Positions 6,407 to 44,229 of a DNA stretch of 45,496 nucleotides are shown one piece after another. A program made the translations under genes and the position numbers. The stretch comes from Cyanophora paradoxa CCMP329 (Eukaryota > Plantae > Glaucophyta): assembly GCA_004431415.1 (NCBI GenBank), contig QPMI01000296.1, positions 1 through 45,496 of the forward strand. The letters run 5' to 3'. The notes under the pieces were generated by a model. The model did no database searches. It had not been told where the DNA came from and worked only from the letters and a program-made list of their open reading frames with translations. Positions within the stretch are counted from its first letter, which is position 1, and each line of letters opens with the position of its first letter.

Positions 6407-6965
6407 TCGGAGTTTGCGCGTCACTCCGGCCGCCGGGCTGTACCTGCATCGATCGCGACAGAGATAGTCAATGCCCCTTCACGCGGTTTGGATTTTCTCG
6501 AATTGTGCAATGAAGTTTTTGCGCCGACATCCCCACCACCCAGTTCCAGGTTTGGTGCGAAGAGATGCGAAATGCATTTGCTGGGTGCATGCAGGATGTC
6601 GTGTGCATACCGTAGTTCTGGATGCTCATCGACCCCCCATCCAGATGCCGAAGGCGCGCGTGCAGAGGTATAGCTTGACCAAGCGCTTCAAGCTTAGGAT
6701 TACATTTAAATCGGTCAGATTTTCACAGAGTCAATTTGCATCGACATCTCAGAGAAAAACACCAGCTGCAGGATAAAGAGCCTGAACGGACACAGAATAA
6801 TCGATATCAAGGGTCATGATCAATAATTATGGCGATCATCGCCCTCGTGTCTCTAGGTCTATGCACTTGCAACCGAGCGCGCCGCGCGCGCAGAGGCGCG
6901 GGGCCCTCCGCCCCGACGGGGGAGCCGCCGCGGGGGGCCCTACCCCCGGCCCGGCGCGGGGCGGC

Positions 6966-9900
6966 CTACTCGAAGTCGAGGGCGTCGAGCTCGGCGGCGG
7001 GGGCGGGGGCCTCGGCGCCAAAGCCCTCGAACTCGTCGTCGTCCAAGGCGTCGTACTCGGCCTCCTCGCCGCTCGCGATGTCCCCGAAGAGCGGGTCCGC
7101 CACGCTCTGCGCCCCGCCCCCGCTCGGCCGGCGGCGGCGGGGGGCACTGCGGCAGCGGGGCGGGGCCGGGGCGGGGGCGGGGCGCACGCGGAACTCGAGG
7201 TAGGAGTCGTGGAGGCCCTGGACGGTGCCGGTGAGGGTCGTGACGACGGCCTCCGAGACGTAGCGCGGGCCCTCGCCCGCCTCGCCGGCGACGGCCTCCT
7301 CGTAGAGCTCCTTGAACTCGCTCACCAGCAGCTCCTTCTTCAGCTCCGACACCGCCTCGCCCGCCCCCGCCGCCTCCGCCGCCTCCTCCGCCTCCTCGCC
7401 CGCCGCCTCGGCCTCGTCCTCGGCCTCGGCGGTCGCCTCCTCGGCGGCGGCCGCCTCCTCCACCGCCGCGTCCACCTCCGCCTGCGCCTCCTCGATGCTC
7501 TCCACGATCTCCGCCGCCTCGGCGTCGCTGCCCGCCTCCTCCAGCTGCTCCGCCAACTCTTCCACCACGTCCGCCGCCTCGCTCGCCTCGGCCGCCGCGT
7601 CGGCAGCCGCCTTGGCGCCCTCGGCCGCCGTCTCGGACGCCTCCTGCGCCGCCTCGGCCGCCTCCTCGGCCTGCTCGAGCTGCTCGGCGGCCTCCTCGCG
7701 CTCCGCCGGCGTGTCCGCCTCCTCCGCCGCCTCCTCGAGCTGCTCGACCTCCTCCTGCGCGTCGGCGGCCGCCTCCAGCGCCTCCTCCGCCTGCGCCTGC
7801 GCCTCGGCGGCCGCCTCCCGCGCCTCGGCCGCGCCCTCCTGCGCCTCCTCGACGGCCGCGTCGGCCGCCGCCGCGGGGTCCTCCTCCGCCAGATCCGCCA
7901 GGATCTGCCCCCGCCGTCGGCCCCGCCCCCCCTCGAGAGCGGGCGCCCGACGGGCGGGGCCGGCGCACCTCGGAGTCGGCCTCGGCCGCCGCCTCCTGCG
8001 ACTCCTCTAGAACCGTCTCCACGCTCTCCTGCGCCCCCGAGCGCGTCGGCGGCCCCGCGCCGCCTTGGGGCGAGGCGGCGCGTGCGGCGGACCTCGGTGG
8101 CGGCGACGTCGGCCTGCTGCTCCTCGATGGCATCCACGATGTCGCCGACGGTCTCCTCCTGCGGCTCGCGCTCAGCTGCGCCCCGGCGCGGCGCGGAACT
8201 GCGCCGGCGCACGACGGCGGGGCTGCTGGTGTCGGCGGCGATGTCGGCGGCCTCCTCCTTCAGGTCCTCGAGGGTCTCGGTGTGCTCCTGCGCGCAGCCC
8301 CGTCGAACGCGGCAGGGAGCACGACGTCGACGTGGCGCGGGGAAAAGACCTCGAGCTTCTCCTCCGCCTGCTCCAGCTCCTCGGTCTTCTCCTCGAGCTG
8401 AACGAGAGCGCCACTCAGCCTCGGGGGCCGCGAGGGCCCAGGCCCGGTCGAACCTTCTCCTCGAGCGCCTCCTTCTCCTCGGTGGTGTCCGCGTTCTCGA
8501 GCTGCTCCGTCGTCTCCTGTGGTGTGTGCGTTACGCGCCGTGATGCGTTGCCATCGCCGCCGCGGCAGGGACGGCGGATGGTCAGGATCAGGGGCAAACC
8601 TGGATGTCCTGGGTGATGTCCTGGATGTCGGCCTGCGCCGTCGAATCGCCTCAGTGGCCGTCGGGCACCCCTCAATATGGCGAAGGACCACAGAAGCGCA
8701 CCTGCGTCTCGTTGATCGCCTCGGTCGTGTCGGCGACCTCCTCCTTCAGGTCCTCCACCTGCTCAGCCGGCTGCGCGGCGCCCGTCAGAGACGGCGGAGA
8801 TGCTGCGGAAACACCCCTTCGAAATCCGTGCACTACGCGTAATAGGAAGGCAGAATTTGAAAGAGCTATAACTGATGCGAGGGTTGCTCCCCGAGAGCGT
8901 ACGCGTGACGCCATGGCCATTAATCGAGAAACGCGGCGGAAACATATACAAGCGATTTGCAATGCTGACGGAACCCGGGAGCCTTTCCGCCGCGCCCTTA
9001 TCAGTTACCGCCGCTAACCGGCTTAAAGCAGCAACGGGCCATGGACGGCGAGCACGAGCGCGAGCGCACCGAGTCGTCGGAGGTGGCGACATCGACCGCG
9101 TCCGCAGCAGCCTCGGAAACGTCCTCTGCCTTCTCCTGCGCCCCCGAGCGCGTCGGCGGCCCCGCGCCGCCTTGGGGCGAGGCGGCGCGCGGCGGACCGC
9201 GGTGGCGGCGACGTCGGCCTGCTGCTCCTCGATGGCATCCACGATGTCGCCGACGGTCTCCTCCTGCGGCTCGCGCTCAGCTGCGCCCCGGCGCGGCGCG
9301 GAACTGCGCCGGCGCACGACGGCGGGGCTGCTGGTGTCGGCGGCGATGTCGGCGGCCTCCTCCTTCAGGTCCTCGAGGGTCTCGGTGTGCTCCTGCGCGC
9401 AGCCCCGTCGAACGCGGCAGGGAGCACGACGTCGACGTGGCGCGGGGAAAAGACCTCGAGCTTCTCCTCCGCCTGCTCCAGCTCCTCGGTCTTCTCCTCG
9501 AGCTGAACGGGAGCGCCACTCAGCCTCGGGGGCCGCGATCAGCGGGCCCAGGCCCGGTCGAACCTTCTCCTCGAGCGCCTCCTTCTCCTCGGTGGTGTCC
9601 GCGTTCTCGAGCTGCTCCGTCGTCTCCTGCGATGTGCTCGTTACGCGCCGCGATGCGTTGCCATCGCCGCCGCAGCAGGGACGGCGGATGGTCAGGCGCA
9701 AACCTGGATGTCCTGGGTGATGTCCTGGATGTCGGCCTGCGCCGTCGAATCGCCTCAGTGGCCGTCGGGCACCCCTCAATATGGCGAACGACCACAGAAG
9801 CGCACCTGCGTCTCGTTGATCGCCTCGGCCGTGTCGGCGACCTCCTCCTTCAGGTCCTCCACCTGCTCAGCCGGCTGCGCGGCGCCCGTCAGAGACGGCG

Positions 9901-12900
9901 CTGATGGCGGCTGCGGGTGTGTATCGATATCCAAGATAATCAACCGGAGAGATCCGTTGGCCGCGCGCGTCCTCGTCACGTGGTAGGTATTCGGTAATTA
10001 TATGCGGGGGAGCGCTGCAAAGCTATCCACATATGCATGCCTCGTCTTCGTAAAAATAAATTCTAGCACAGCGTAATGCAGGCAGAGAAACAGGGGCGAT
10101 TCCATCCGTTTCTCGTCGCCACCGGCGGGCGCAGGCACGAGCGCACCGAGTCGTCGGTGGTGGCGACGTCGACCGCGTCCGCAGCAGCCTCGGAAACGTC
10201 CTCCACCTTCTCCTGCGCCCCCGAGAGCGTCGGCGGCCCCGCGCCGCCTTGGGGCGAGGCGGCGCGCGGCGGACCTCGGTCGTGGAGATCTCGTCCAGAA
10301 GGTTTTCAATGTTCGCCGTCACGTTAACGTTGTCGACGACGTTCTCCTGCGCCACGCTATCAGCTGGGCATGCGCCGCGGCTCGCGGCCGTATGGCACGT
10401 TGCGGAGCGGCGCACGACGGCGGGGCTGCTGGTGTCGGCGGCGATATCGGCGGCCTCCTCCTTCAGGTCCTCGAGGGTCTCGGTGTGCTCCTGCGCGCAG
10501 CCCCGTCGAACGCGGCAGGGAGCACGACGTCGACGTGGCGCGGGGAAAAGACCTCGAGCTTCTCCTCCGCCTGCTCCAGCTCCTCGGTCTTCTCCTCGAG
10601 CTGAAAGGGAGCGCCACTCAGCCTCGGGGGCCGCGATCAGCGGGCCCAGGCCCGGTCGAACCTTCTCCTCGAGCGCCTCCTTCTCCTCGGTGGTGTCCGC
10701 GTTCTCGAGCTGCTCCGTCGTCTCCTGCGATGTGCTCGTTACGCGCCGTGACGCGTTGCCATCGCCGCCGCAGCACGGCGGATGGTCAGGCGCAAACCTG
10801 GATGTCCTGGGTGATGTCCTGGATGTCGGCCTGCGCCGTCGAATCGTCTCAGCGACCATCGGGCACCTCTCAATGTGGCAGAAATTAAATCCGCAGAAAT
10901 GCACCTGCGTCTCGTTGATCGCCTCGGTCGTGTCGGCGACCTCCTCCTTCAGGTCCTCCACCTGCTCAGCCGGCTGCGCGGCGTCCGTCAGAATGGCACT
11001 CTTCTTCGGAGCCGTTGCAAAAACATTATTTGTTGCAATTGCATATTCGAATTTCACGTGACTGTAAATCCAAGAAATAGGCAGAATACTGCTGTGGTTA
11101 TGGCGCCATAAAACGGGAATTTAAGATTAGGCAGAATAGTGCGGTGATCTAGATTCCATGGACGTGCACGTGCTCGGTGAAGCACAGGACCCAGCTTAAG
11201 CTTGCAATTGGAGCTAGCCTTGAATTTGTGTTGGGCTTGGTCCGCTATCCACAGCGACCCGAGGACGACGGCGGGCCGAGCGCACCGACTCGTTGGTGGC
11301 GTCGACGGCGTCACCCGAGGACAGCAGCTCCACGGTCTCCACGGCGAGCACGAGCGCGAGCGCACCGAGTCGTCGGAGGTGGCGACATCGACCGCGTCCG
11401 CAGCAGCCTCGGAAACGTCCTCTGCCTTCTTCTGCGCCCCCGAGCGCGTCGGCGGCCCCGCGCTGCCTCGCGCGCGCGTCGGCGTCGCGGAGCGCGCGGC
11501 GGACCGCGGTGGCGGCGACGTCGGCCAGCTGCTCCTCGATGGCGTCGGTCACATTCTCGACGATCGCATCCTGCCGCGACTCAGTTGTGTTCGGCGCGGC
11601 GCGGCACGGCGTGTCGACGTCGCACGATGGCGGAGTTGCTCGTCTCCGTGGCGAGGTCAGCCGCCTCGATGTTGAGCTCCTGGAAGAGACATTACATCAA
11701 TCTGAAGAAGCGAGCGGCGAGGGATTGGTGCGATGTCACCTGGAGGGTGTCAGCATGCTCCTGCGGACAGCTCCGTCAAAGGCGGTATATATGAAACACA
11801 ATAACACGAAGAAAGGACCTGCAGCTCCTCCTGCTTCTCCTCCAGCTCCTCAGTCTTCTCCTCGAGCTACATAACCGAATTAAATGTCTCTCAGCGATCA
11901 GCTGAGGCGGGCCCCGGTCCCCGAACCTTCTCCTCGAGCGCCTCCTTCTCCTCGGTGCTGTCAGCGTTCTCGAGCTGCTCCGTGGTCTCCTCGATCTCCT
12001 TGGAGATTTCCTTGATGTCGACCTGCTCCAGTGTAATTATAACATCTAATGATCAGAGACCGCCCCCCAAGCACCCGAAAGAAAGCAGAATTTAATAAAA
12101 GAACACGAACTTGGGTCTCGTTGATGTCCGCGACGGCCTCGCTTAGATCTCCCTCCAGATCCGCAGCCTTCTCTGTCGGCTGCGATCAGGACGCCCGTCA
12201 GAATTGAGGAATTCAGAATCTAATCAGATATTGAATAGAGAGCTCGAGGAAAGGCAGGATTGTTACTTCAAGTTCAAGAAGGCAGGATATATATTACATT
12301 AAGAGCGAAACGTAGATATGCATACAGAACTGCTTTATAGCGGAAGTTGGTATAGTGTGATAAACAAACTATGCATATATATTAGACACATATAACTATA
12401 CATAAAAATCAGTGTATCGATCTGATGCATAAATATGCATATGCATGGCTCAGGCGCACCGAGTCGTTGGTGATCTCCTGCGACGCGTCGATGGCGTCGA
12501 CGGCGGTTTCAATGGCGTCCTCGGCCTTGCCCTGAGTTCGGGAAAGCGGGTCGGCGGATGCAAGCTCGAGATCCAGCGCTGGCCGTCCCGGGCTGCGGGG
12601 GCGCGGCGCGCTTCTGCTGATGCGCACCTGGGCTTCCTTCACGTCGTCCTGGGCAGCCTCGATTTTCTCGACGAGCTCATCAGCCTTCTCATCCTGCGCC
12701 GCGAGCACTTAGCGGCGCGCAGGGCGTTCGGTGGTCCCCCGGGGCCCGGGCCCCGCGCGCGCGGCTCGGCGCATGCGCACGACGGTGGCGTCGCTGCTCT
12801 CCACGGCGTACGCGGTGGTTTCCTCCTTCAAGTCCTCGAGCTTCTCATCCTCCTTCTCGAGCTTTTCCTGCGCCCCCGTGCGTCAAATACAAATATCGTG

Positions 12901-13287
12901 TTTTCATTCGAAGACGAAGCCACACCTGCTCCTTCTCCAGCTTCTCCTGCTGCCCCTCGAGCTTCGAAAAGGAGATCGGCGTCAAGGAGATCGAATCCAA
13001 AGCGCGGGCGTCGCATTCAAAAAGAACCTTCTCTTCGAGCTTCTCCTTCTCCTCCTTCGAATCGGTATTCTCCTGCGCCAGCAATTGCAAGCGCGCCCAC
13101 GTCGGCGGCTGCGCGCCTCCTCGGGGCGTCGCGGGGCGCGGCGGCGGACCAATTTCTTCTCGGTTTCCTTGATTTCGTTGGACAGGTTGGAGATGCCCGA
13201 CGAGGCCTGCTGAAGTATCGCCTGCGTTTGCTGAACAGCCTCGACGATTTGCTGAGCCGCGGCTTGAGCGCTAGGTGCAGCTCCCAT
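6966..13287 (-). CDS. Large acidic Glu/Ala/Asp-rich, probably coiled-coil, internally repetitive protein of unknown function; many micro-exons; possible N-myristoylation
   Basis: Starts MGAAPSAQAAAQQIVEAVQQTQAILQQASSGISNLSNEIKETEKKL (ATG 13287). Repeated exons encode PAEQVEDLKEEVADTTEAINETQ / ADIQDITQDIQ / ETTEQLENADTTEEKEALEEK / LEEKTEELEQAEEKLE / EHTETLEDLKEEAADIAADTSSPAVV / EETVGDIVDAIEEQQADVAAT, each flanked by GT..AG. Ends AELDALDFE-TAG at 6966-6968. Confidence 0.8.
8025..12200 (-). repeat. Intragenic tandem duplication: about 4 copies of a ~1.1-1.2-kb multi-exon cassette, including introns
   Basis: Marker CTCCTGCGCCCCCGAG(C/A)GCGTCGGCGGCCCCGCG recurs at ~8025, ~9133, ~10210 and ~11431 (variant). 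Copies nearer 8-11 kb are nearly identical even in introns; the copy at 11.4-12.2 kb is more diverged. Confidence 0.9.
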
Positions 13288-13479
13288 GATGCGGATACGT
13301 AGCTGCCTGCGCGCGCAGCTCCTCGTGAGACGATCGGCGATGCGCGCCTGCGAAGCACGCGCGCCAGCTAAGCACGCGTACGCGCAAGCTACGAATCCAA
13401 ACCTTAGACGAGAGGGTCTTTCGGAAGGTGCGTCGCTCTTCCGGCGAACTGTTATGCGATTAGCTCGGCGCCGCGAGGC

Positions 13480-14277: not shown

Positions 14278-17081
14278 TCAGCGGAGCGGGGCGGGGGCCG
14301 CGGGGCGGAGGAGCTCGAGGGCGGCCTGGGCGGCAGCCTCGGGGCCGGCGCGGGGGGGCAGGCGTAGCGGCGCCGCCCCCTCCACGCGCAGGTACGCCGC
14401 CGCCACCGCTGCGCGGAAGGCGGCCTCCTCCTGCGCCGGCCGGGGCCGAGGCGGGGCCTCAGCAAGGGCCTCGCCGGGGCGCGGGGGCTTGGGGGCGGGC
14501 GGGGCGGACGGCGAGGCGGGCCTCCTCGGGGTGGCGCCCCCGCCCGCGCCAGCAGCCGCCTGCGCCGCTCCGCCTCGGGCAGCGCCAGCACCAGCACCCC
14601 GCCGGGCGCGGCAGGTCCCGCGGCCAGCGCAGGCCGCCCCGCCCCGCCCCCTGCCGGCCCCGCACGCTCTGGCGGGGGCCGGCGCGCTCGGGCGCGGGGC
14701 GCACGGGTCCGGCGCGGAGCTCGGCCTCGGCGGCCCCGTAGGCGGCGGTGGAGGGCCAGTAGCGGTCCATCACGCACGCGCGCCCCTCCGCCTGCACCGC
14801 CCGCGCCGCCCTGCCGCCCCGAGGGGCCCATCGGCCGGCGTCCGGCCCCGCGCGGGGCTCCGGCGGAGGCGGCACCGGCCGGCGGCATAGTTGCCGAGCG
14901 AGTAGAAGGCGCGCCGGGCGGTCCGATCGGCCCCGTCCAGCAGCGGGCGCACCTGCGCCTGGCTCGCCGGGCGTGGCGGCGGGACAGGGCGGGGCGGGGC
15001 GGGTGGGGCGGACGGGGGCGAGGGCCGGGGCGGGGTGGCGAGGAGGGCGGCCGGGGCGCGCTCCGCGAGGCGCCCGCCAGCGTCGACTTGCCGCTCCCGT
15101 CCAGCCCTGCCCCCGCCCCCGCCCTCGCCGTCGCAAGGCGCGCGCGGCGGGGGCGGCGGGCCGGGCGACCTTCCAGGACCCAGAAGGGGCGGCGGGCGCG
15201 GGAGGAGGGCGCCGAGGGAAGCGGCGGGTCGCCCGCCCAGCCGGCCGCCTCCTCCGTGCGGAAAGCCCGCTCCGCGTGCACGGCCGACGAGAGCGGCTGC
15301 GGGGGCGCTCGGGCGCGGCTGGCGGCGGGCGGGGCGGGAGGGCGGGGGCGGTGCGGGGCGGGCCCCGCGGGGTCGAGGCGGCGGGTCGCGGCGAAGGCGA
15401 GGAGCGCGTCGCAGGCGGCGTCGAAGCCCGCCGGCCCCGCCCCGCCGCCCCGCCGCCCCGCCCGCCCGCGCGAGCGAGGCGGAGGCGGGCCGGCGGAGGC
15501 TGCGGGGCCGGTCCAGCGGAGGGCGGCGGGCCCGGCGGGCGCGGCCGGGCGAGGTGGAGGGCGGCCCAGGCGACGAGGCGCGCCCCTGCGGGGAGCCGGC
15601 GAGGGCTGCTGCAACGCCCCTCTCCAGCGCCGCCTCCCCGGCGGCCCTGCGCCCCGCGCGTGAGGCGGCGCGGGGAGGGCGTGAGGGCGGGGCGCGCGTC
15701 GGGGCGGCGGCGGCGACGAAGCCGAGGGCCGCCGGCGCCGCCTCCCGCTCGATCGCCTCCGCCCGTACAGCGCTGCGCCGCCCCGCGCCCGTCGGCGGAG
15801 TGGGGCGGCCCGAGGCGCCCCGGCGCCCCGGCGCGGCCCGCACCGTGCACGGCGCCGCATGTGCGGAGGGCGAGCCGCACGGCGGCGGCGAGGCGGTTGC
15901 GGGCCTGCGCGGCGAGGGCCGCCCGCACCGGCGAGGCCGCCTGCGCGCAGCCGGCGCCGGTGTCAGCGTCGGGCGCCGGCGGCCGCGCGGCCGGCTCGGA
16001 GGGCGGCGCGCAACGGGGCCAAGGCGGCGTCCAGCTCCCACTCGTCGAGGGCCGGCGACGAGACCCAGACGACCAGGCAGAGGCAGCGCGCCCCGGGGCC
16101 CGCCCGCCGCCCCCGCGAGCTCGAGGCGAACGGTCGCCTCGCAGCCGGCGTGGGGATCCAGAAGCGGAAGGCGGCGGGGCCGGGGCCGCCGCCAGCGCCG
16201 GCGCAGCGGCTCGAGGCGCGGGAAGGTGCGCGGGCCGCAGTCGCCGCCGGCCGCCTTGGCCACCTGGCGGAGGACGGCGGTGCAGAGGTCGCCGGGGGCG
16301 ACGGCGCCGCCCGAGTCGAGCGGGCGAGGAGCACCAGCCGCGGAGGCGCGCCGCCAGGCGCCCCGCCACGAGCGCCGCCTCGTCGCCCACCCCGGCGAAC
16401 CACGCGGCGAGGAGCGCCCGCTCGGCGGCCGCCTCCCCGGCCCCCTTCTGTGTCAGCCTGCGCGGCGTCGGTGCCGCGCGGCCGGCGCGGGGCGCGGCGC
16501 TTTGGCTCGGACCTCTCGAGGGAAGCTTCAGAGTCGCACGCGAGCGGCACGATGAAGATGCGCACGCGGGCGTCGAGGCGGGCGATGTGCGCTTCCGCCG
16601 CGGCCTCCAGCGCCTCGGAGGCCCCGGGAGATCGGCAGATGGCGTAGCCCAAGTTGCCAATGTGCCACGTCTCGATGACACGCCGTCGCTCGCCCCTCCG
16701 GGCCTCGTCGCGCTCCGCCTCCTGCTCGAAGAGCCTCCACTCGAACTCGGGCTGCTCGCTGCGCGAAGAAAATTCACACAGGGTATTAACGGCATTCGCC
16801 CTCGCCCGCCGACGCGCGATCTCAAGTCTCGCGCACCAGAAGCCGAACGCGCCCGCGTCCCGCTCGAGCTCGCGCTCTCGCGCTTCGTCGCCGAGCTCCG
16901 CATCAAAAACCGCATGCGCATCCCACCGCGCAGCGAGCTCCTTCCCGAGCGTTGACTTGCCGGAGCTGAGCCCATGGCAGCTGGGATCAAATTGCGCGGT
17001 ACCCGGCGGCGCGCTTTATTCTTCGCACCCGTGGGCCCCGCACAGCACTATCCAGGTGCAGGCGTGCTCGTCGGACATCAT
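14278..17081 (-). CDS. Tandem double P-loop nucleotide kinase; C-terminal domain CMPK2/thymidylate-kinase-like, N-terminal domain a second NMP/deoxynucleoside-kinase-like P-loop
   Basis: Exon 1 MMSDEHACTWIVLCGAHG, intron 16966-17028, then SGKSTLGKELAARW...FEWRLFEQEAERDE...VIETWHIGNLGYAICRSP. Second domain FWVLEG|LDGSGKSTLA (~15080-15186), LLATPP, RRAFYSLGNYAA, VMDRYWPSTAAY (~14737-14772), WPRDLPRP, VLVLALPEAERRRRL, FRAAVAAAYLRV. These follow the CMPK2-type pattern EGLDATGKTT / RRAFYxxGNY / DRYWHSTAxY / WPxDLxxP. Stop TGA at 14278-14280. Confidence 0.85.
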
Positions 17082-17192
17082 AAACCACGCGCACCGCGCT
17101 GCTCGAGATTTCGGCTTCGACCGCAACTTCGACCGAATCCTCAGCTCGCACGCTCGGGGTCTCAAGCTCCTGCCAGACTGTGCCAGTGCGCA
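17082..17192. promoter_or_regulatory. Probable bidirectional promoter between the kinase (-) and CYTH (+) genes
   Basis: Only 111 bp separate the divergent ATGs at 17081 and 17193; contains a short TTCGAC/TTCGGC repeat. Confidence 0.55.
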
Positions 17193-18516
17193 ATGGCGTT
17201 CCTCGTCGCGGCGGGCGCCCTCCCGCGTGCGGCGCTGGCCTCTGCTGGCCATGGGATTGCCGGGCTCGAGCTCTGCGGGCAGCTGGGGGCCGCGGCCGGC
17301 GCTCGCGTCCGCGGCCGACGGCGGCGGGCGTTCGCGTCGGCGGCGGCAGCGGCTGCGGTCGCCTCGGTGGCGCCGCCGGCGAGGATCGAGGTGGAGCGGA
17401 AGTTCGCGGTCACGCCGGAGGACGAGGCGCGCGTGGAGCGCGCCCTGCGCCTCCGCTCTGAGAAGTCCTTCACGGGTGCCTGCGCGGTCGCGCCGCGCGG
17501 ACCTGCGCTGCCCGACGCCGGGGGCGGCGCGCGCCATGCGCAGACGTGTACTACGACGCGCCGGGCTTCCCGCTGACGAGGCGCGACGTCTGGCTCCGCG
17601 AGCGCTCCGGCGCCTGGGAGCTCAAGCGGCCCGCCCTCCTCCCCGGCGCCGGCGGCGAGGGCGGCGCGCCCGACGGCGTCGGTGCGGCTGCGCACGCTCC
17701 GGCGGACGCGGGGTCGCGCTCTGAGGGGCGCGCGGGCGGGCAGACCGGTACGAGGAGGTGGAGGGGAGGGCCCGTCGCCCGCGCCCTCGGCCTCGGTGCG
17801 CGCCGCGAGGCGGCCCCTCGCCCCGGCCCCCGCCCGCCCCGTCCGACCCGGCGGCGCGCAGCGCTGCCGCCGGCGGCCTCGCTCGCCGACGCGCTTCGCG
17901 GGAGGGCTACGAGGCCTTCGCCCGGTGCTCTCTCCGCGGCGCGCCGGCCGGCTCCCAGATGGCAGCTGAAGCGAGGCGGGGCGGGGGGGCAGGATCGGGA
18001 CGCGGCGGCGGAGCTTCGTGCCGCGGGCCGGCGAGGGCGAGGGGCCGGCGAGGGGAGGGGGGCCTCTCGGTGGTCGTCGACGCGATGGACTTCGGCTACC
18101 GCGTGCGGCCCCGCGCGCTCCGCACCCCGCGGGCCGCCAGGTCCGAGCCCCCGGGGCGCCGCAGATCCTGGAGATCGAGGTGATGGCGGAGGCCACCCCG
18201 CCGCCCTCGGTCCCGCCCGCCCCCCGCCCCCCGCCCCCCGCCCCTGCCCCCTCACCGCGCCCCGCCCCGGCAGCGCGGGCGGAGGGCCTCATCGACGCCT
18301 GCGCCCGCCGCCTCGGCCTCCGCCGGGGCCCGCCCCGGCAAGGTCTGCCCCGGGCCCCTCCAAGCGAGACGCCGCGTGCCTGGGGCCAGGGGCGCTGAGG
18401 GGGGGCGGGGCCAGGTGCTGGTGTACCTGGAGCGCTTCCGCCCGGCGCACCTCGCCGCCCTCCGCGACGCCGGCCTCCTCGCCTCCAAGCGCCTCCCGGA
18501 GGCTCAGGCACCCTGA
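17193..18516 (+). CDS. CYTH-domain (triphosphate tunnel metalloenzyme) protein, thiamine-triphosphatase-like, with an N-terminal organelle-targeting-like extension
   Basis: MAFLVAAGALPRAA... presequence, then IEVERKF (ExExK motif, 17385-17405), EKSFT|DVYYDAPGFPLTRRDVWLRERSGAWELK, DRYEEVEG, VVVDAMDFGY, ILEIEVMAE, GK|VLVYLERFRPAHLAALRDAGLL; TGA at 18514-18516. Confidence 0.88.
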
Positions 18517-18771
18517 CGAGCCCCTTAACCCCCCCCCCCCCCCCTCTCCCCCCTCCCCCTTCCCCCGCCATGGTGCCCCCTCCGGCCCTCCTGCCCCCGC
18601 CCCCGCCCGCCTGTCTTGCCCAAGCCGACTCCTCTCAACATCCGATTCTTAAAGAGCAGCGTGCGCATAGAAGACATGAGAAAGAGGATCAACGCTACGC
18701 TCAACACGTCGCGGCAGAGTGACAATTGGGTGATTCAGATACACATGCACAGCACTTCGAATTCAGTGAAG

Positions 18772-19056
18772 CTAAATAGCGTAGCTGCAGCTGACTCGGT
18801 GATAGTTGAATATAGCTTCCGCGAAGTTCAGCTTCCGCATGCCCGCCCCCGCCAGCGCCCGCAGCGCCGCGCGGGCCTCGTCGGCGTCCGCGACGGCGGA
18901 AGACTTCGACGTGTGGAAGCAGAAGCCGCAGCGGTAGTTGCACGCGCGCAGGAAGTGATAGTTCACGCTCAGCGGCTCCGGATCCACGCGTACGGCGCGC
19001 GGACTCTTATGCGCTGCGGGTGCGGCGGCCAAGCTCGAGTGGAGAGCCCGAGCCAT
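18772..19056 (-). pseudogene. RSAD2: Viperin (RSAD2-like) radical-SAM gene, 5' fragment only (94 codons, homology lost after KLNFA)
   Basis: MARALHSS...[28 protein letters not shown]...[20 protein letters not shown] matches the viperin hallmark SVNYHFTRxCNYxCGFCFHTAKTS...GMxKINFxGGEP; CxxxCxxC at 18919-18942. The GGEP and the rest of the barrel are absent, and an in-frame stop is at 18772-18774. Confidence 0.85.
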
Positions 19057-19353
19057 TTGATTGCTCGACTTCAGCTGCTGCGGAGCGCAGTGGGAGTGGT
19101 GCAGTGCTAGTTTCCAGAAGATCATTTTCGGGATCCGGCCGCGGATCCGCTAACGTGAACGTTCGCGAATGCGACGCTGTGACGCGCGCGCCTGTGCGGC
19201 TGTTATAATGCAGCGTAGACTAGATGTGCCGAAATGAGAGGCAGCGGCGGGCGCGAAGCACTGCGACGCTGGACGCGCTCAGTCGAAAGCTCGACCGAAA
19301 AAAACGCACAGTTTGGTGTACCCCAAGGCTTCGTGCCCCAAGGACTGCCCGCG

Positions 19354-38789: not shown

Positions 38790-39262
38790 GACGGCGGCGG
38801 CGGTGCGGTCGCCGGGCGGGGCGGAGGCGCTGCGGGCGGCGGCGCGGCGCGCCGCACGGGAGCAGGCGCCGGCGCGCGCGCGCGGCGGGCGGCTGCGCGG
38901 CGTGCCGGGCGGGCGGAGGCGCGGCGGGCGGCGGCGGGGCTCGCCGGCCGCGGGCGGGGCGGAGGCGCGGCGGCCGGCGGGTGGCGGCGCGGCTCCGAGG
39001 CTCGCCGGGCGGGACGGATCGCGGAGGCGCGGCTGCCGGCGGCGCGGCTCGCCGGGCGGGGCGGAGGCGCGGCGGGCGGCGGCGCGGCTCCCCAAGCGGG
39101 GCGGAGGCGCAGCGGGCGGCCGCGCGGCGCGCCGGGCGGGGGCGCGGCTCGCCGGGCGGGGCGGAGCGCGGCGGGCGGCGGCGCGGCTCGTCGGGCGGCG
39201 GCGCGGCTCACCGGGCGGGGCAGAGGCGCGGCGGGCGGCCGCGCGGCTCGTCGGGCGGGGCG
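38790..39262. repeat. Imperfect GC-rich tandem repeat, unit about 40 nt (GCGGCGCGGCTCGCCGGGCGGGGCGGAGGCGCGGCGGGCG)
   Basis: About 10-12 degenerate copies between 38790 and 39262. Confidence 0.8.
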
Positions 39263-39288
39263 GATCCGGGACTCGGGAGGGGGCGCGC

Positions 39289-40432: not shown

Positions 40433-43400
40433 CTAGCGGTAGAAGACGAGCCAGGCGAGCCAGTTGAAGTTGGCGGGGAAGCCGCCCTCCCCGGGGTGCT
40501 GCCCGCCCCGCCCCCGCCTCTCAGCGCGGGACGGGGCGGGGCGGGGCGGGGTGGGGGACCTTGGCGGGGACGGGGACGTAGTCGGTGCCGTTGAAGGTGC
40601 CGCGGTAGGTCAGCCGCGCCCCCGCCCCCGCCTGCCGCCCCCGGCCCCGCCCCGCTCGGCCCCGGGCCCCGGGCCGCCCCATCTCCCGCGACCGGGCCCG
40701 CGCGGACCTTGACGTCGGCCGTGACGTCCTCGGCGTAGTGGGGCACCGCCGCCCCCGGGCACCACCCCGCCCGCCCGAAGTACCACGTCCCGTACTCCGC
40801 CCCCGCGTCGGCCCCGCGGCCCGCGGCGGGGGAGGAGCGGGGGGGGGGGGGTACCTGGTTGGGGACGACCCCGCGGTCGACGGCGGCCGCGTCGCCGCAG
40901 CCGTCCGCCGTTCCGGCCGCATCCAGCGCGTACCTGAGGGGTACATGCGCTTCAGCGGCGTGCGGCGTGCGGGGGGCGGGGGACGGGGGCGGGGCCGCGC
41001 CTGTGGGTGGCGGGGCGGGCGCCGGGGCCCTGGACGGAGAAGGCGTGCTCGGTGGGGCAGAACTCGGCGCAGTTCTCCTCCTGCGCGACGCTCCGTCGGC
41101 GCCGCCCGCAGCGGGGCCCGGGGCGGAGGGGCGGGGCGCGCGTCGGAGCCCCAGCCGTGGCCGGTGAGGAGGACCCAGAGCTCCGTGCGGGCCGCCCACG
41201 CCGGCACCGCCACGCTCTTCTCCCCGAAGGCCGCGTTGTACCCCGGCCCGAAGCCGCCCCCGCAGCACCACAGCGCCGCCGCCGCCGCCGGGACGGGCCC
41301 GCCGCTGCGCCGACGGGGCTCGGGCTCCGGGGCGGGCGGGCGGGGGCGGCGGGGGCGGCGGGGCGGACGCGGGGGCGGGGCGAGGTGGAGGACGAGGGTG
41401 GCCCGCGAGTCGCCCCAGCCGCCCTCCACCTGCAGCCGCACCCACACCGGAGCCGCCGCCCCGCCGGCGCTGCCGTCGCCCCCGCAGCGCCTGCGCCGCG
41501 AAGTCAGCCGCGCTGGCCCAGCGAGGCGGGGCGGGGCGGGCGGACGCGGTGCGGGGGGGCGGGGGCCGGGGAGGGGTAGAGGAGGGGCAGGACGCCGCGG
41601 GCCTCGGAGAGCCAGCGGGCCTCCCGCCCGTACGACGTGATCTGCCGGGGCATGAGGGGCCCCCGGGGGCGCCGGGGCGGGGCCCGGGGGGCGGGGCGGG
41701 TGGGACCCAGCGGAGGGCCTCCTGGCAGGTGGCGCCGGGGTCCCCCGGGCGGCCCTGGCACACGCTGAGGGAGAGGACCTTGTCCCTGCGCGCCGCTCGG
41801 GGGGGGGCAGGGGGGCGGGAAGCGGGCGGGTGCAGCTGACCACTCGCCGCAGGAGGCGTCGTCGCGGCGGTGGCACTGCACCCGCAGCTCCACCGCAAGC
41901 TCCCCGAACCTGCCGGGGCGTGAGCGGCCCCGCGGCGGCGCGCGGCGCGCGGCGGGGGCGGGTGGGGCGGGGCACCCCGGGTTGGGGGCAGGTCGAGGGC
42001 GACGTCGGCGGGGCCGGCGTCGAGGCGCCGCCCGTCCAGCAGGGGCACCCGCAGGTACCCGGCGTCGACGCCAGGGCCGCCTTCCGCCGCTCCACCCGCG
42101 CGAAGTAGCCGTACCTGCGTCGGCGTGAGGGGGCGGGGCCGGGGGCGGGGGGCGGCGGGGACGCGCGTGCGGGTCTCGAGGACGGCGGCGGCGAGGGAGG
42201 GGCGGATGGTCCCCTGGAAGGTCCCGTTCGCCACCACCGGCCGCCGCAGCAGCTGCGCCTCGCCCCCGGTGAGGCGCTGGGCCGGGGAGGAGGCGGGCGG
42301 GCGGCACGGGGCGCGCCCCGAGGCGGCGGACGCGGTGCTCGCGGTCGATGGCGACGGCGTGCGGCGGGATCTGCGCCGGCGCGCGTCGCGAGGAGGTGGG
42401 CGGGGCCGGCGGGGCGGGGGCGGGGGCGGACGGCCTGGGGGTCGAGGGCCCCGACGTAGACGTGGGCGCCGGCGGCGAGCAGCTTGTGCAGGCGCGCCCC
42501 CTCCGCGAAGTCGATCATCAGCGCGGGGATCGCCGCCCCCGCGCACTCCCCCGACCCGCAGCCCATCGCCCCTTTCGGCTCCTCCGCCCCTGCGCCCGCC
42601 GGCGTCAGGAGGGGAGCGGGCGGGCGCGGCGCGGCGCGGGGCGTACCGGTGTAGATCAGGACGCCCGACGCGTTCCGCCGCTGGGCCTCCATCACCTGCG
42701 GGGGGTACAGGGCGGTCGGAGGTCGGAACGCGAGCAGCTCTTTTGGGGGGAGGGGGGGGAGAGGGGGGTAGGGGACCTTTTCGTAGAAGGAGCAGCGGCC
42801 GCGGCGGACGAGGGCGACGGCGCCGCGCAGGTCGGCGTGCTCCTCGCGGGGCGCCGTCCCGTTCGGGGAGGCCGCGGCCGGCCCGGCGCCGGCGCCGGCG
42901 AGGGCGCGGCGGCCGCGGCGGGGCCCGGCAGCTTCGAGGCCTGCGGCGGGGTGCGGCGGGGCGGGGCCGCGGCCGGCGCCCGGCTCGCGGGGATGGCGCC
43001 GGCGTCTCCTTGCAGCCGTACCCGTCGCCGCCCACCCAGAGCACTCGCCTGCGGCGTACCCCTCAGCCTCGAGCCGGGGGACGGGGGGACGGGGGCGCAC
43101 TTGGGCTTCCAGGAGGGGTCGGCGACGGGCCAGGCCGGGAGCCAGCCGCCGGCGCCCCGATCCCTCGAACTCCTGCGCCGGCAGCGCCCGCGTCAGTTCG
43201 CGGGCGGGTGGGCCGCTGGGAGGCGGGGCGCGGGGGGGGGGGGGGGGGGGGGGGGGGGCGGGCCTCGAGGGTTGGGGAGCCGTGGCGGGGAGGGCGAGGA
43301 CGGGGAGGAGCTCGAGGGTGTCGGGGAAGGAGCGGAGGAGGCGGAAGAGGGGGTCCCGCCCTCCGCCCCCGCCGCCGCGCCGCCTCCAGCGGGTCCGCCG

Positions 43401-44229
43401 CGCCGAAGAGGAGCTGCGGGGCGGGGCCCTCGAAGAGCGCCGCCGCCCGCGCCTCCCCAGCGCCTCCGCGCACGCCCCCGCAGCCTGCGCTCCGCGTCGC
43501 CCCGGGCGCGCCCGGCGAGGGGCGGGGCGGGGCGCGCCGCTCGCGCATGAAGGCGGCGTAGGCGCCGGCGTCCTCGCCGACGCCGTAGAAGATCACGTCG
43601 ACGTCGGGAGGCAGCGCCTCCAGCGCTGGCGCGTACTCCGACGCCGAGAACCACAGCTGCTTCTGCTCGTGCGACTGCCTGCGCGAGCGGAGCCTCCGTC
43701 GCCGGGCCGGCGGGGCGCCGGCCGGCGGCGGGCTCGGGGCGCGCACGGGTGCAGGGCGAGGAGGAGGACGGAGCGATCGCGCATGCCGCCCGTCCCGTCG
43801 TACCTGCCGCCGGCGCACGTGTGAGCCGCCTCCCTCGGCCCGTACGCGTCGCCGCACGCCGGGTCACCTGTACGTGCGGGTGCCGTCGCCGTCGAGCACC
43901 TCCATGCTCCAGCTGTCGATCAGCTGCCCTACCCTCATAGGGTATTCGGTCTGTGGCGGGGGCAGGTGCTTCGGCCGCACGCGCCGCCGCAGAAGCGGCG
44001 ACTTCGTGTGAAAGACGGCCTTTCCGGCCGATCCCTTCGCTGCGCGCTCGTCCTGCTCGATCTCGGGGCCCGCCGCGTACAGCCGCGCGGTCTGCTGGAG
44101 GTCGACGGTGCGCCGCAGGCGCTCATAGCCGACGAAGTGCTGCGGAGCGGCCGGCTCGGCGTCCTCAGCTAATGCCGCGGCCACGATCGCAAGCAAAGCG
44201 ACCGCGAGGGCCGCAGCAGCCCGCGCCAT
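40433..44229 (-). CDS. Secreted peptide-N-glycosidase F (PNGase F)-like protein with a protease-associated (PA) domain
   Basis: Signal peptide MARAAAALAVALLAIVAAALA. PA domain: LRGAVALVRRGRCSFYEK|VMEAQRRNASGVLIY...IPALMIDFAEGARL. PNGase F-like: CHRRDDASCGEW|DKVLSL, QEALRW|ITSYGREARWL, ELWVLLTGHGWG, ENCAEFCPTEH, VVPNQ|YGTWYFGRAGWCPG; ends WLVFYR-TAG at 40433-40435. Confidence 0.85.

Follow-up and report, generated by a model that had tools for sequence, protein, structure and literature searches.

Positions 14,278 to 19,056 of contig QPMI01000296.1 of the glaucophyte Cyanophora paradoxa CCMP329 (assembly GCA_004431415.1; the whole contig, 45,496 nucleotides long, is the window analysed here) carry side by side a nucleotide kinase gene, a gene for a CYTH-domain triphosphatase of the THTPA type and the N-terminal piece of a viperin gene, and this locus is very probably the relic of a selected viperin–kinase–triphosphatase module. 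The antiviral enzyme viperin makes 3′-deoxy-3′,4′-didehydro-nucleoside triphosphates (ddhNTPs), and its gene is often linked to nucleoside monophosphate (NMP) kinase genes (Shomar et al., bioRxiv 10.1101/2023.09.13.557418). In the fuller reading that we develop below, to which we give about an even chance, the viperin of a three-gene module has been cut off in Cyanophora, the kinase and CYTH genes are left intact and transcribed, and in modules that are still whole the CYTH enzyme would hydrolyse ddhNTP.

A cut-off viperin beside two transcribed genes

The features of the locus, in window coordinates, are as follows:

14278..17081, minus strand: double-kinase gene (EukProt tig00001258_g7826, model P0001), multi-exon and transcribed
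16250..17081, minus strand: N-terminal P-loop kinase domain of the “ETWHxGN” family (lower boundary approximate; Pfam AAA_28, 31.3 bits)
15190..16250, minus strand: middle segment of the kinase gene, ~1 kb, without a Pfam match
14278..15188, minus strand: C-terminal kinase domain, assigned to the CMPK2 type, six exons (E 7e-49 against a CMPK2-like profile)
17082..17192, no strand: gap of 111 bp that separates the start codons of the divergent kinase and CYTH genes
17193..18516, plus strand: CYTH/TTM triphosphatase gene assigned to the THTPA subfamily (tig00001258_g7827, EukProt P0122), eight exons, transcribed
18772..19056, minus strand: cut-off viperin reading frame of 94 residues with a CxxxCxxC motif; homology ends at residue 79 (~18820)
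18814..18838, minus strand: viperin breakpoint with a 9-nt direct repeat, a possible repair microhomology
18583..19274, no strand: unspliced contig of the RNA-like run X19 over the viperin stub and both flanks (0 mismatching letters, 0 gaps)

A preliminary description of this DNA, made from its letters alone, had named a CMPK2-like kinase, a head-to-head CYTH gene and a viperin N-terminus, and Pfam, Protein Data Bank (PDB) and profile matches confirm all three domains at these positions. The DNA of the window is eukaryotic and rich in GC, and its introns are short; the EukProt models g7826 (kinase) and g7827 (CYTH) are consecutive Cyanophora paradoxa entries. The kinase lies fewer than three genes from viperin with the CYTH gene alone in between, which is the spacing that Shomar et al. 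use to define a viperin-associated NMP kinase locus.

Splicing was read from assembled contigs of runs X15–X19. Runs X15–X20 are taken to be RNA (“RNA-like” here) from one property, the skipping of introns in their contigs; these contigs show neither strand, nor transcript starts and ends, nor expression level. In four such runs (at most two samples) the kinase introns near 16759–16836, 16457–16511 and 14430–14508 are skipped and single bases are added at seven places. The CYTH gene has seven GT-AG introns, the first of which is skipped in three RNA-like runs; four single-base additions are listed in the contigs that cover it, and four further frame breaks are inferred in its gene model. Relative to the RNA-like contigs the window thus carries at least 11 single-base deletions over 14278–18516 (seven in the kinase, four in the CYTH gene), owing to which P0001 and P0122 run out of frame over long stretches, and since the contigs insert one base at each of the 11 listed places, the frameshifts in both genes are likely to be errors of the window sequence. 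The RNA-like contigs are unbroken from ~17003 to 17474, over the gap between the two genes and kinase exon 1 and into kinase intron 1, and because they reach that intron, overlapping 5′ ends fit equally as well as a shared promoter does.

The viperin frame is a stub. Its residues 27–79 match mouse viperin (E 1e-16) and the CxxxCxxC motif of radical S-adenosylmethionine (SAM) enzymes is present; its best NCBIfam match is TIGR04278 viperin, and it is 73% identical to its best homologue with the conserved residues all kept. It corresponds to positions 23–87 of a 331-position profile (complete viperins have ~280–330 residues) and, at 39.7 bits, falls short of the NF038283 cut-off of 180; the frame leaves homology after residue 79 and stops after 94 residues. 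The remainder of viperin was not found in the 45 kb window by tblastn with 81 full-length viperins, all of which were significant only at the stub stretch, by a profile search or by a motif search in six frames. One contig (18529–19600) in each of three DNA runs spans the break unchanged, and the X19 RNA-like contig crosses it without difference and without a splice. On this ground we rejected the idea that the viperin is short through an assembly error, and the unchanged break in four runs means that the truncation is real in the sequenced material (possibly a single strain). The GC content at third codon positions (GC3) is 0.87 in the homologous part and 0.53 past the break, and copies of the 9-nt direct repeat that lies across it begin at 18838 and 18822 (two repeats of this kind occur among 2970 positions of the 17–20 kb region); the GC3 drop and the repeat together suggest a recent deletion or rearrangement.

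With viperin cut after residue 79 and no remainder in the window, the locus should be unable to make ddhNTP: the stub derives from a viperin without being a functional member of the family, and ddhNTP synthesis here looks structurally excluded. The working ddhNTP-synthesis module that had been proposed for this locus is not supported. In run X19 the contig depth is 98 over the stub and 3 over the last CYTH exon, values not taken as a ranking of expression, and the absence of the stub from the listed contig pieces of X15–X18 carries no weight. Head-to-head with the stub, with 298 bp between the start codons, is an unrelated gene on the plus strand (19354 to about 24400) for a protein with TPR, DUF4470 and MYND-finger domains.

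The two-headed kinase

The kinase gene is two-headed, with a CMPK2-type C-terminal domain and a second P-loop kinase domain with an ETWHxGN motif at its N-terminus. A 67-residue stretch of the C-terminal domain matched 52 proteins among 1.84 billion; 49 of the 51 matches other than itself have Pfam Thymidylate_kin, and those with names include animal UMP-CMP kinase 2. The spliced domain matches a profile of these CMPK2-like proteins (E 7e-49) and PADLOC PDC-M51B (E 2e-11), falls inside the CMPK2-like clade of a 58-sequence tree (Shimodaira–Hasegawa-like approximate likelihood ratio test, SH-aLRT, 97.1), and reaches 152.9 bits with four named CMPK2 sequences, compared with 25.9 bits for 11 canonical dTMP kinases of prokaryotes. 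The outgroup consisted of prokaryotic thymidylate kinases (TMKs) only, extracted from 11 of 18 loci. By these sequence comparisons the C-terminal domain groups with CMPK2 and not with canonical prokaryotic dTMP kinases, which upholds the earlier assignment to CMPK2 as opposed to housekeeping dTMP kinases.

The middle segment, which has too many single-base errors in the window for a gene model, gave no Pfam match, and a six-sequence profile of the animal-type CMPK2 N-terminal domain found no match, the middle segment so searched being frameshifted in the window. Among the kinase matches, the Logan protein P0148 is a CMPK2-like kinase fused to viperin, and its CMPK2-like domain is closely related to that of the Logan protein P0141, in which ETWHxGN and CMPK2-like domains are fused in the reverse of the Cyanophora order. 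The fusions P0127, P0171 and P0139 comprise a CMPK2-like kinase joined to DUF3293, in either order, and a tandem CMPK2-like double kinase in a beetle. A bacterial viperin fused to a deoxynucleoside monophosphate kinase and DUF4258 was also seen (L100:1020-2831).

The N-terminal domain is above the cut-off for Pfam AAA_28 (31.3 bits) and has E 8e-26 against a profile of prokaryotic ETWHxGN kinases. The family profile matches thymidylate kinases in the PDB, and a model of the member from locus L001, taken as a stand-in for the family, has deoxyadenosine kinase as its best fold match (template modelling, TM, score 0.63). A Glu occupies the position at which deoxynucleoside kinases (dNKs) have their catalytic base. 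We consider the domain likely to be a nucleoside or NMP kinase of dNK/TMK-type fold, the deoxyadenosine kinase match and the Glu pointing to the nucleoside-kinase role.

Free-standing ETWHxGN kinases were found at 14 prokaryotic and 2 viral loci (16 prokaryotic in another search), many of them in Patescibacteria or small archaea. Their neighbours at 15 loci include TMK-like (five), CYTH (two), NUDIX (four) and non-viperin radical SAM genes (three). GreA-like and methyltransferase genes are further neighbours (loci L001–L016, L145 and L147, from Patescibacteria, small archaea and proviral contigs), and several of the adjoining TMK-like kinases of prokaryotes branch next to the CMPK2 clade. The ETWHxGN kinase as a prokaryotic viperin partner was rejected: the neighbouring radical SAM genes are MoaA-like or SPASM-type, and none of 16 prokaryotic genomes carrying the kinase has a viperin above the cut-off.

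The CYTH gene and its linkage to viperin

The CYTH gene is above the cut-off for Pfam CYTH, and the PDB entries that it matches best are the mouse and human thiamine triphosphatases (ThTPase; E 1e-16). ExExK, DxY and ExE motifs without the HF cyclase motif are the marks of the THTPA subfamily (Vogt et al., PMC8233210), and the Cyanophora protein has ExExK, DxY, WxRxR and ExE and lacks HF. By alignment, in mouse/mammalian ThTPase numbering, the Y39/K65 dyad, R125 and the thiamine-pocket positions are kept as well; at W53, Y79 and M195, with which mouse ThTPase binds thiamine (PMC4641920), the Cyanophora protein has W, Y and L, and the fungal viperin-linked CYTH proteins show S or T in place of M195. 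A model of the CYTH protein of locus L074, folded as a homologue in place of the window protein, reached a predicted local distance difference test (pLDDT) score of 92.9 and a TM score of 0.80 to mouse ThTPase 5A64; this homologue shows the TTM tunnel fold with plug helix. Its sequence features place the Cyanophora gene in the THTPA subfamily of CYTH/TTM.

The protein begins with an extension of ~60 residues, Ala-rich and with Phe at position 3, that is consistent with a cyanelle or plastid transit peptide (features described in PMC4510345); it was absent, by name or motif, from three supplementary files of that cyanelle N-terminome paper. Extensions of at least 29 residues occur in 8 of 19 distinct linked CYTH proteins. 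Organelle targeting across the whole family was not upheld, presequence-like N-termini, by a simple presequence rule, being not significantly enriched (7 of 19 CYTH proteins vs 35 of 180, p = 0.13).

Neighbours of viperin were surveyed with a query alignment of 17 rows, 12 of them named fungi, which gave 180 confirmed metagenome loci; the neighbourhood counts cover 80 of these, and the CYTH profile was seeded with the window CYTH model and iterated on the viperin loci. A THTPA-like gene stands beside viperin in 25 of the 80 loci, and many of the others are on 1–2 kb contigs. Where at least 3 kb is present on both sides, the gene occurs in 11 of 15 viperin clusters when these are drawn at 90% identity and in 9 of 11 when they are drawn at 70%. 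The linkage is thus conserved in other genomes, a point on which the preliminary description had made its case depend. Because the profile was grown on the surveyed loci, independent checks were made by Pfam, PDB and fold: Pfam CYTH was confirmed in 7 of the 10 linked candidates examined, and the best PDB matches of the linked-CYTH family profile are ThTPases (E 2.5e-29). The linked gene may be upstream or downstream of viperin and on either strand. An ADK/CMPK1-type kinase is alongside in 18 of the 25 CYTH-bearing loci, and a CMPK2-type kinase was found in none of the 80 except for two weak cross-matches. Persistence of the linkage through rearrangement and a switch of kinase is an argument for selection.

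Most CYTH-linked viperins are ascomycete-like. The named ascomycete viperins form a clade (support 81.5, with an arbitrary root) that excludes the CYTH-linked viperins of loci L038, L072 and L074. The CYTH proteins of the same three loci are the best matches of the window CYTH; the CYTH tree is weakly supported. None of 12 prokaryotic viperin-like loci has a THTPA-like gene, as judged by a THTPA-specific profile that would miss other CYTH classes, and the viral contigs held no viperin relatives. One locus, L097, was set aside from the prokaryotic set as fungal-type: it is a trio of fungal-type viperin, ADK-type kinase and THTPA-like gene inside the chromosome of an actinobacterial metagenome-assembled genome (Lapillicoccus; OZ255840.1, 5640670–5653650), with a CYTH that nests among ascomycete-like sequences, and is either a chimeric assembly or a transfer.

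The proposed module, its rivals and known systems

From the observed gene identities, truncation, kinase and CYTH splicing and recurrence of the linkage we infer every enzyme activity in the following scheme. The kinase would raise the NTP pool, a role published for vertebrate CMPK2, and its N-terminal domain would add a nucleoside-to-NMP step. Viperin would then make ddhNTP, as published for full-length viperins and as is impossible for the stub. The CYTH enzyme would finally strip the γ-phosphate and convert ddhNTP to ddhNDP, by which the response would be turned off and host polymerases protected, perhaps inside an organelle. ThTPase-type TTMs do cleave the γ-phosphate off an organic triphosphate (PMC8233210, PMC4641920), and the termination of mitochondrial RNA polymerase by ddhCTP (PMC11982959) means that a need for self-protection exists. 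The THTPA-type gene is likely, on the linkage data, to be an overlooked partner of viperin; whether the linked CYTH would act as a ddhNTP off-switch is a question on which we are evenly divided.

Several points weigh against the off-switch. Mammalian THTPA is almost absolutely specific for thiamine triphosphate (ThTP) and birds have no THTPA (PMC8615392), and bird viperins are among the viperin matches. The thiamine pocket is intact in the Cyanophora protein, and the linked proteins show no significant enrichment of presequences. The kinase and CYTH genes are intact and transcribed beside a dead viperin, which points to a function that does not depend on viperin, to a loss in very recent times or to a further viperin elsewhere. 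In the survey, 4 of the 15 well-flanked viperin clusters lack a CYTH gene, and the query rows (12 of 17 fungal) and coverage (80 of 180 loci) bias the counts to ascomycetes.

The alternative that survives best accepts a real relic and takes the CYTH protein for a genuine ThTPase, tied to the locus through ThTP metabolism or signalling, or travelling with the viperin–kinase block, with no action on ddhNTP. It has to be taken seriously although we think it unlikely. The retention of all the ThTPase signature motifs and pocket residues, the ThTPases as best sequence and fold matches and the persistence of a transcribed gene without a working viperin neighbour all suit it, but it leaves unexplained an adjacency to viperin that holds across different orientations and two unrelated families of kinase; moreover, the fungal members carry S or T at the M195 position, and a specific ThTPase has not been identified in fungi, plants or microbes according to PMC8615392.

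We consider it improbable that the module is still active, with a full-length viperin elsewhere in the genome or a stub completed in trans, and with the kinase and CYTH serving ddhNTP metabolism. Both of these genes are intact and spliced, and the stub keeps its conserved residues, with a contig over it in an RNA-like run; that contig, however, runs unspliced through the break into the stop, a single contig at 90% likeness accounts for the DNA depth over most of the stub, so there is no near-identical second copy, and no Cyanophora-style EukProt name is among the 120 of 225 viperin matches listed.

Still less credit is due to a CYTH enzyme that belongs to the pathway without being its off-switch, and whose product, made from ddhNTP or some other triphosphate, would be exported, serve as a signal or be phosphorylated again by the two-headed kinase. 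The dNK-like fold modelled for the N-terminal kinase, with Glu at the catalytic-base position, and the CYTH, NUDIX and TMK-like genes beside prokaryotic ETWHxGN kinases would agree with this very improbable reading, but the 16 prokaryotic genomes with the kinase lack a viperin above the cut-off and fungal viperin clusters lack the ETWHxGN domain. Chance adjacency of three genes in a compact genome is scarcely credible, for all that head-to-head pairs are common in this region (the stub and the TPR gene, for example) and that different runs provide the RNA-like contigs over the stub and those over the kinase and CYTH genes: the neighbours of the stub are exactly the two families seen beside viperin elsewhere.

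If the proposed off-switch is taken up again, it bears on two matters. Cells in which a chain-terminating ribonucleotide is made must somehow escape its toxicity, no dedicated ddhNTP-degrading enzyme was found in the literature searched, and the physiological purpose of THTPA is obscure (PMC8615392); the viperin–THTPA linkage would tie both to an action of THTPA-type enzymes on ddhNTPs. A wider and rather doubtful conjecture is that the THTPA family began as a viperin self-protection enzyme and still is one outside animals, in an ancient viperin–kinase–THTPA module whose often organelle-targeted THTPA destroys ddhNTP ahead of any damage to organellar transcription, the ThTP specificity of mammals being later. 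Were this true, a module common to fungi, a glaucophyte and other protists might be as old as the last eukaryotic common ancestor.

Elsewhere in the window, 6900–13290 (minus strand) holds an intron-rich gene for an acidic, coiled-coil-like protein with internal tandem duplications of ~1.1 kb (3–4 copies, 65–99% identity by segment), which has no Pfam match at E 0.001. A PA-domain gene lies at 40524–43592 (minus strand) and a GC-rich degenerate tandem array of ~470 bp at 38792–39264. The frames scanned between 25 and 40 kb gave no Pfam match, and the window has no Rfam match.

Linkage of viperin to an NMP kinase is itself already known (vertebrate RSAD2–CMPK2, fungal viperin–CMPK1), and the Cyanophora locus resembles these pairs in having viperin within three genes of a CMPK2-clade kinase; it differs from them in the THTPA-type gene in between, the second kinase domain, the glaucophyte host and the cut-off viperin. 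The mammalian 25-kDa THTPA (PDB 5A64, 3TVL) has ExExK, DxY, WxRxR, ExE, Y39/K65, R125 and the pocket positions in common with the Cyanophora CYTH, whereas the latter has the ~60 extra N-terminal residues, plastid transit peptide-like, and adjoins viperin. Human RSAD2 is on chromosome 2, so it is not adjacent to THTPA. The human THTPA gene is at 14q11.2 (PMC8615392). Among the surveyed CYTH-bearing viperin loci the kinase is of ADK/CMPK1 type in 18 of 25, in contrast to the CMPK2-type double kinase of Cyanophora.

Some viperins appear to be linked physically to a CYTH-class domain by fusion, if COG1437 is, as we take it to be, CYTH. Four fusions of viperin with a “triphosphatase or cyclase” domain (COG2114/PF00211 or COG1437) are tallied by Shomar et al. 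(10.1101/2023.09.13.557418), without follow-up in the accessible text; there they are pooled with class III cyclases and given no THTPA assignment, neighbourhood survey or function, and the Cyanophora genes are separate. Beyond this count, none of the publications listed by our searches, outside which most subscription journals lay, deals with a linkage of viperin and THTPA/CYTH, and no paper on viperin in Cyanophora came up. The view in the preliminary description that the linkage was not described is right only in part, in view of these four published fusions. The glaucophyte locus moves the viperin–THTPA link outside fungi and joins it to a different kinase family, which implies great age or repeated assembly; its broken viperin limits it as an experimental system, for which intact fungal or L074-type loci are better. 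Set beside the known viperin–kinase pairs, what is new in Cyanophora is a third partner, of THTPA type, seen here in a non-fungal host together with a two-headed kinase of CMPK2 type.

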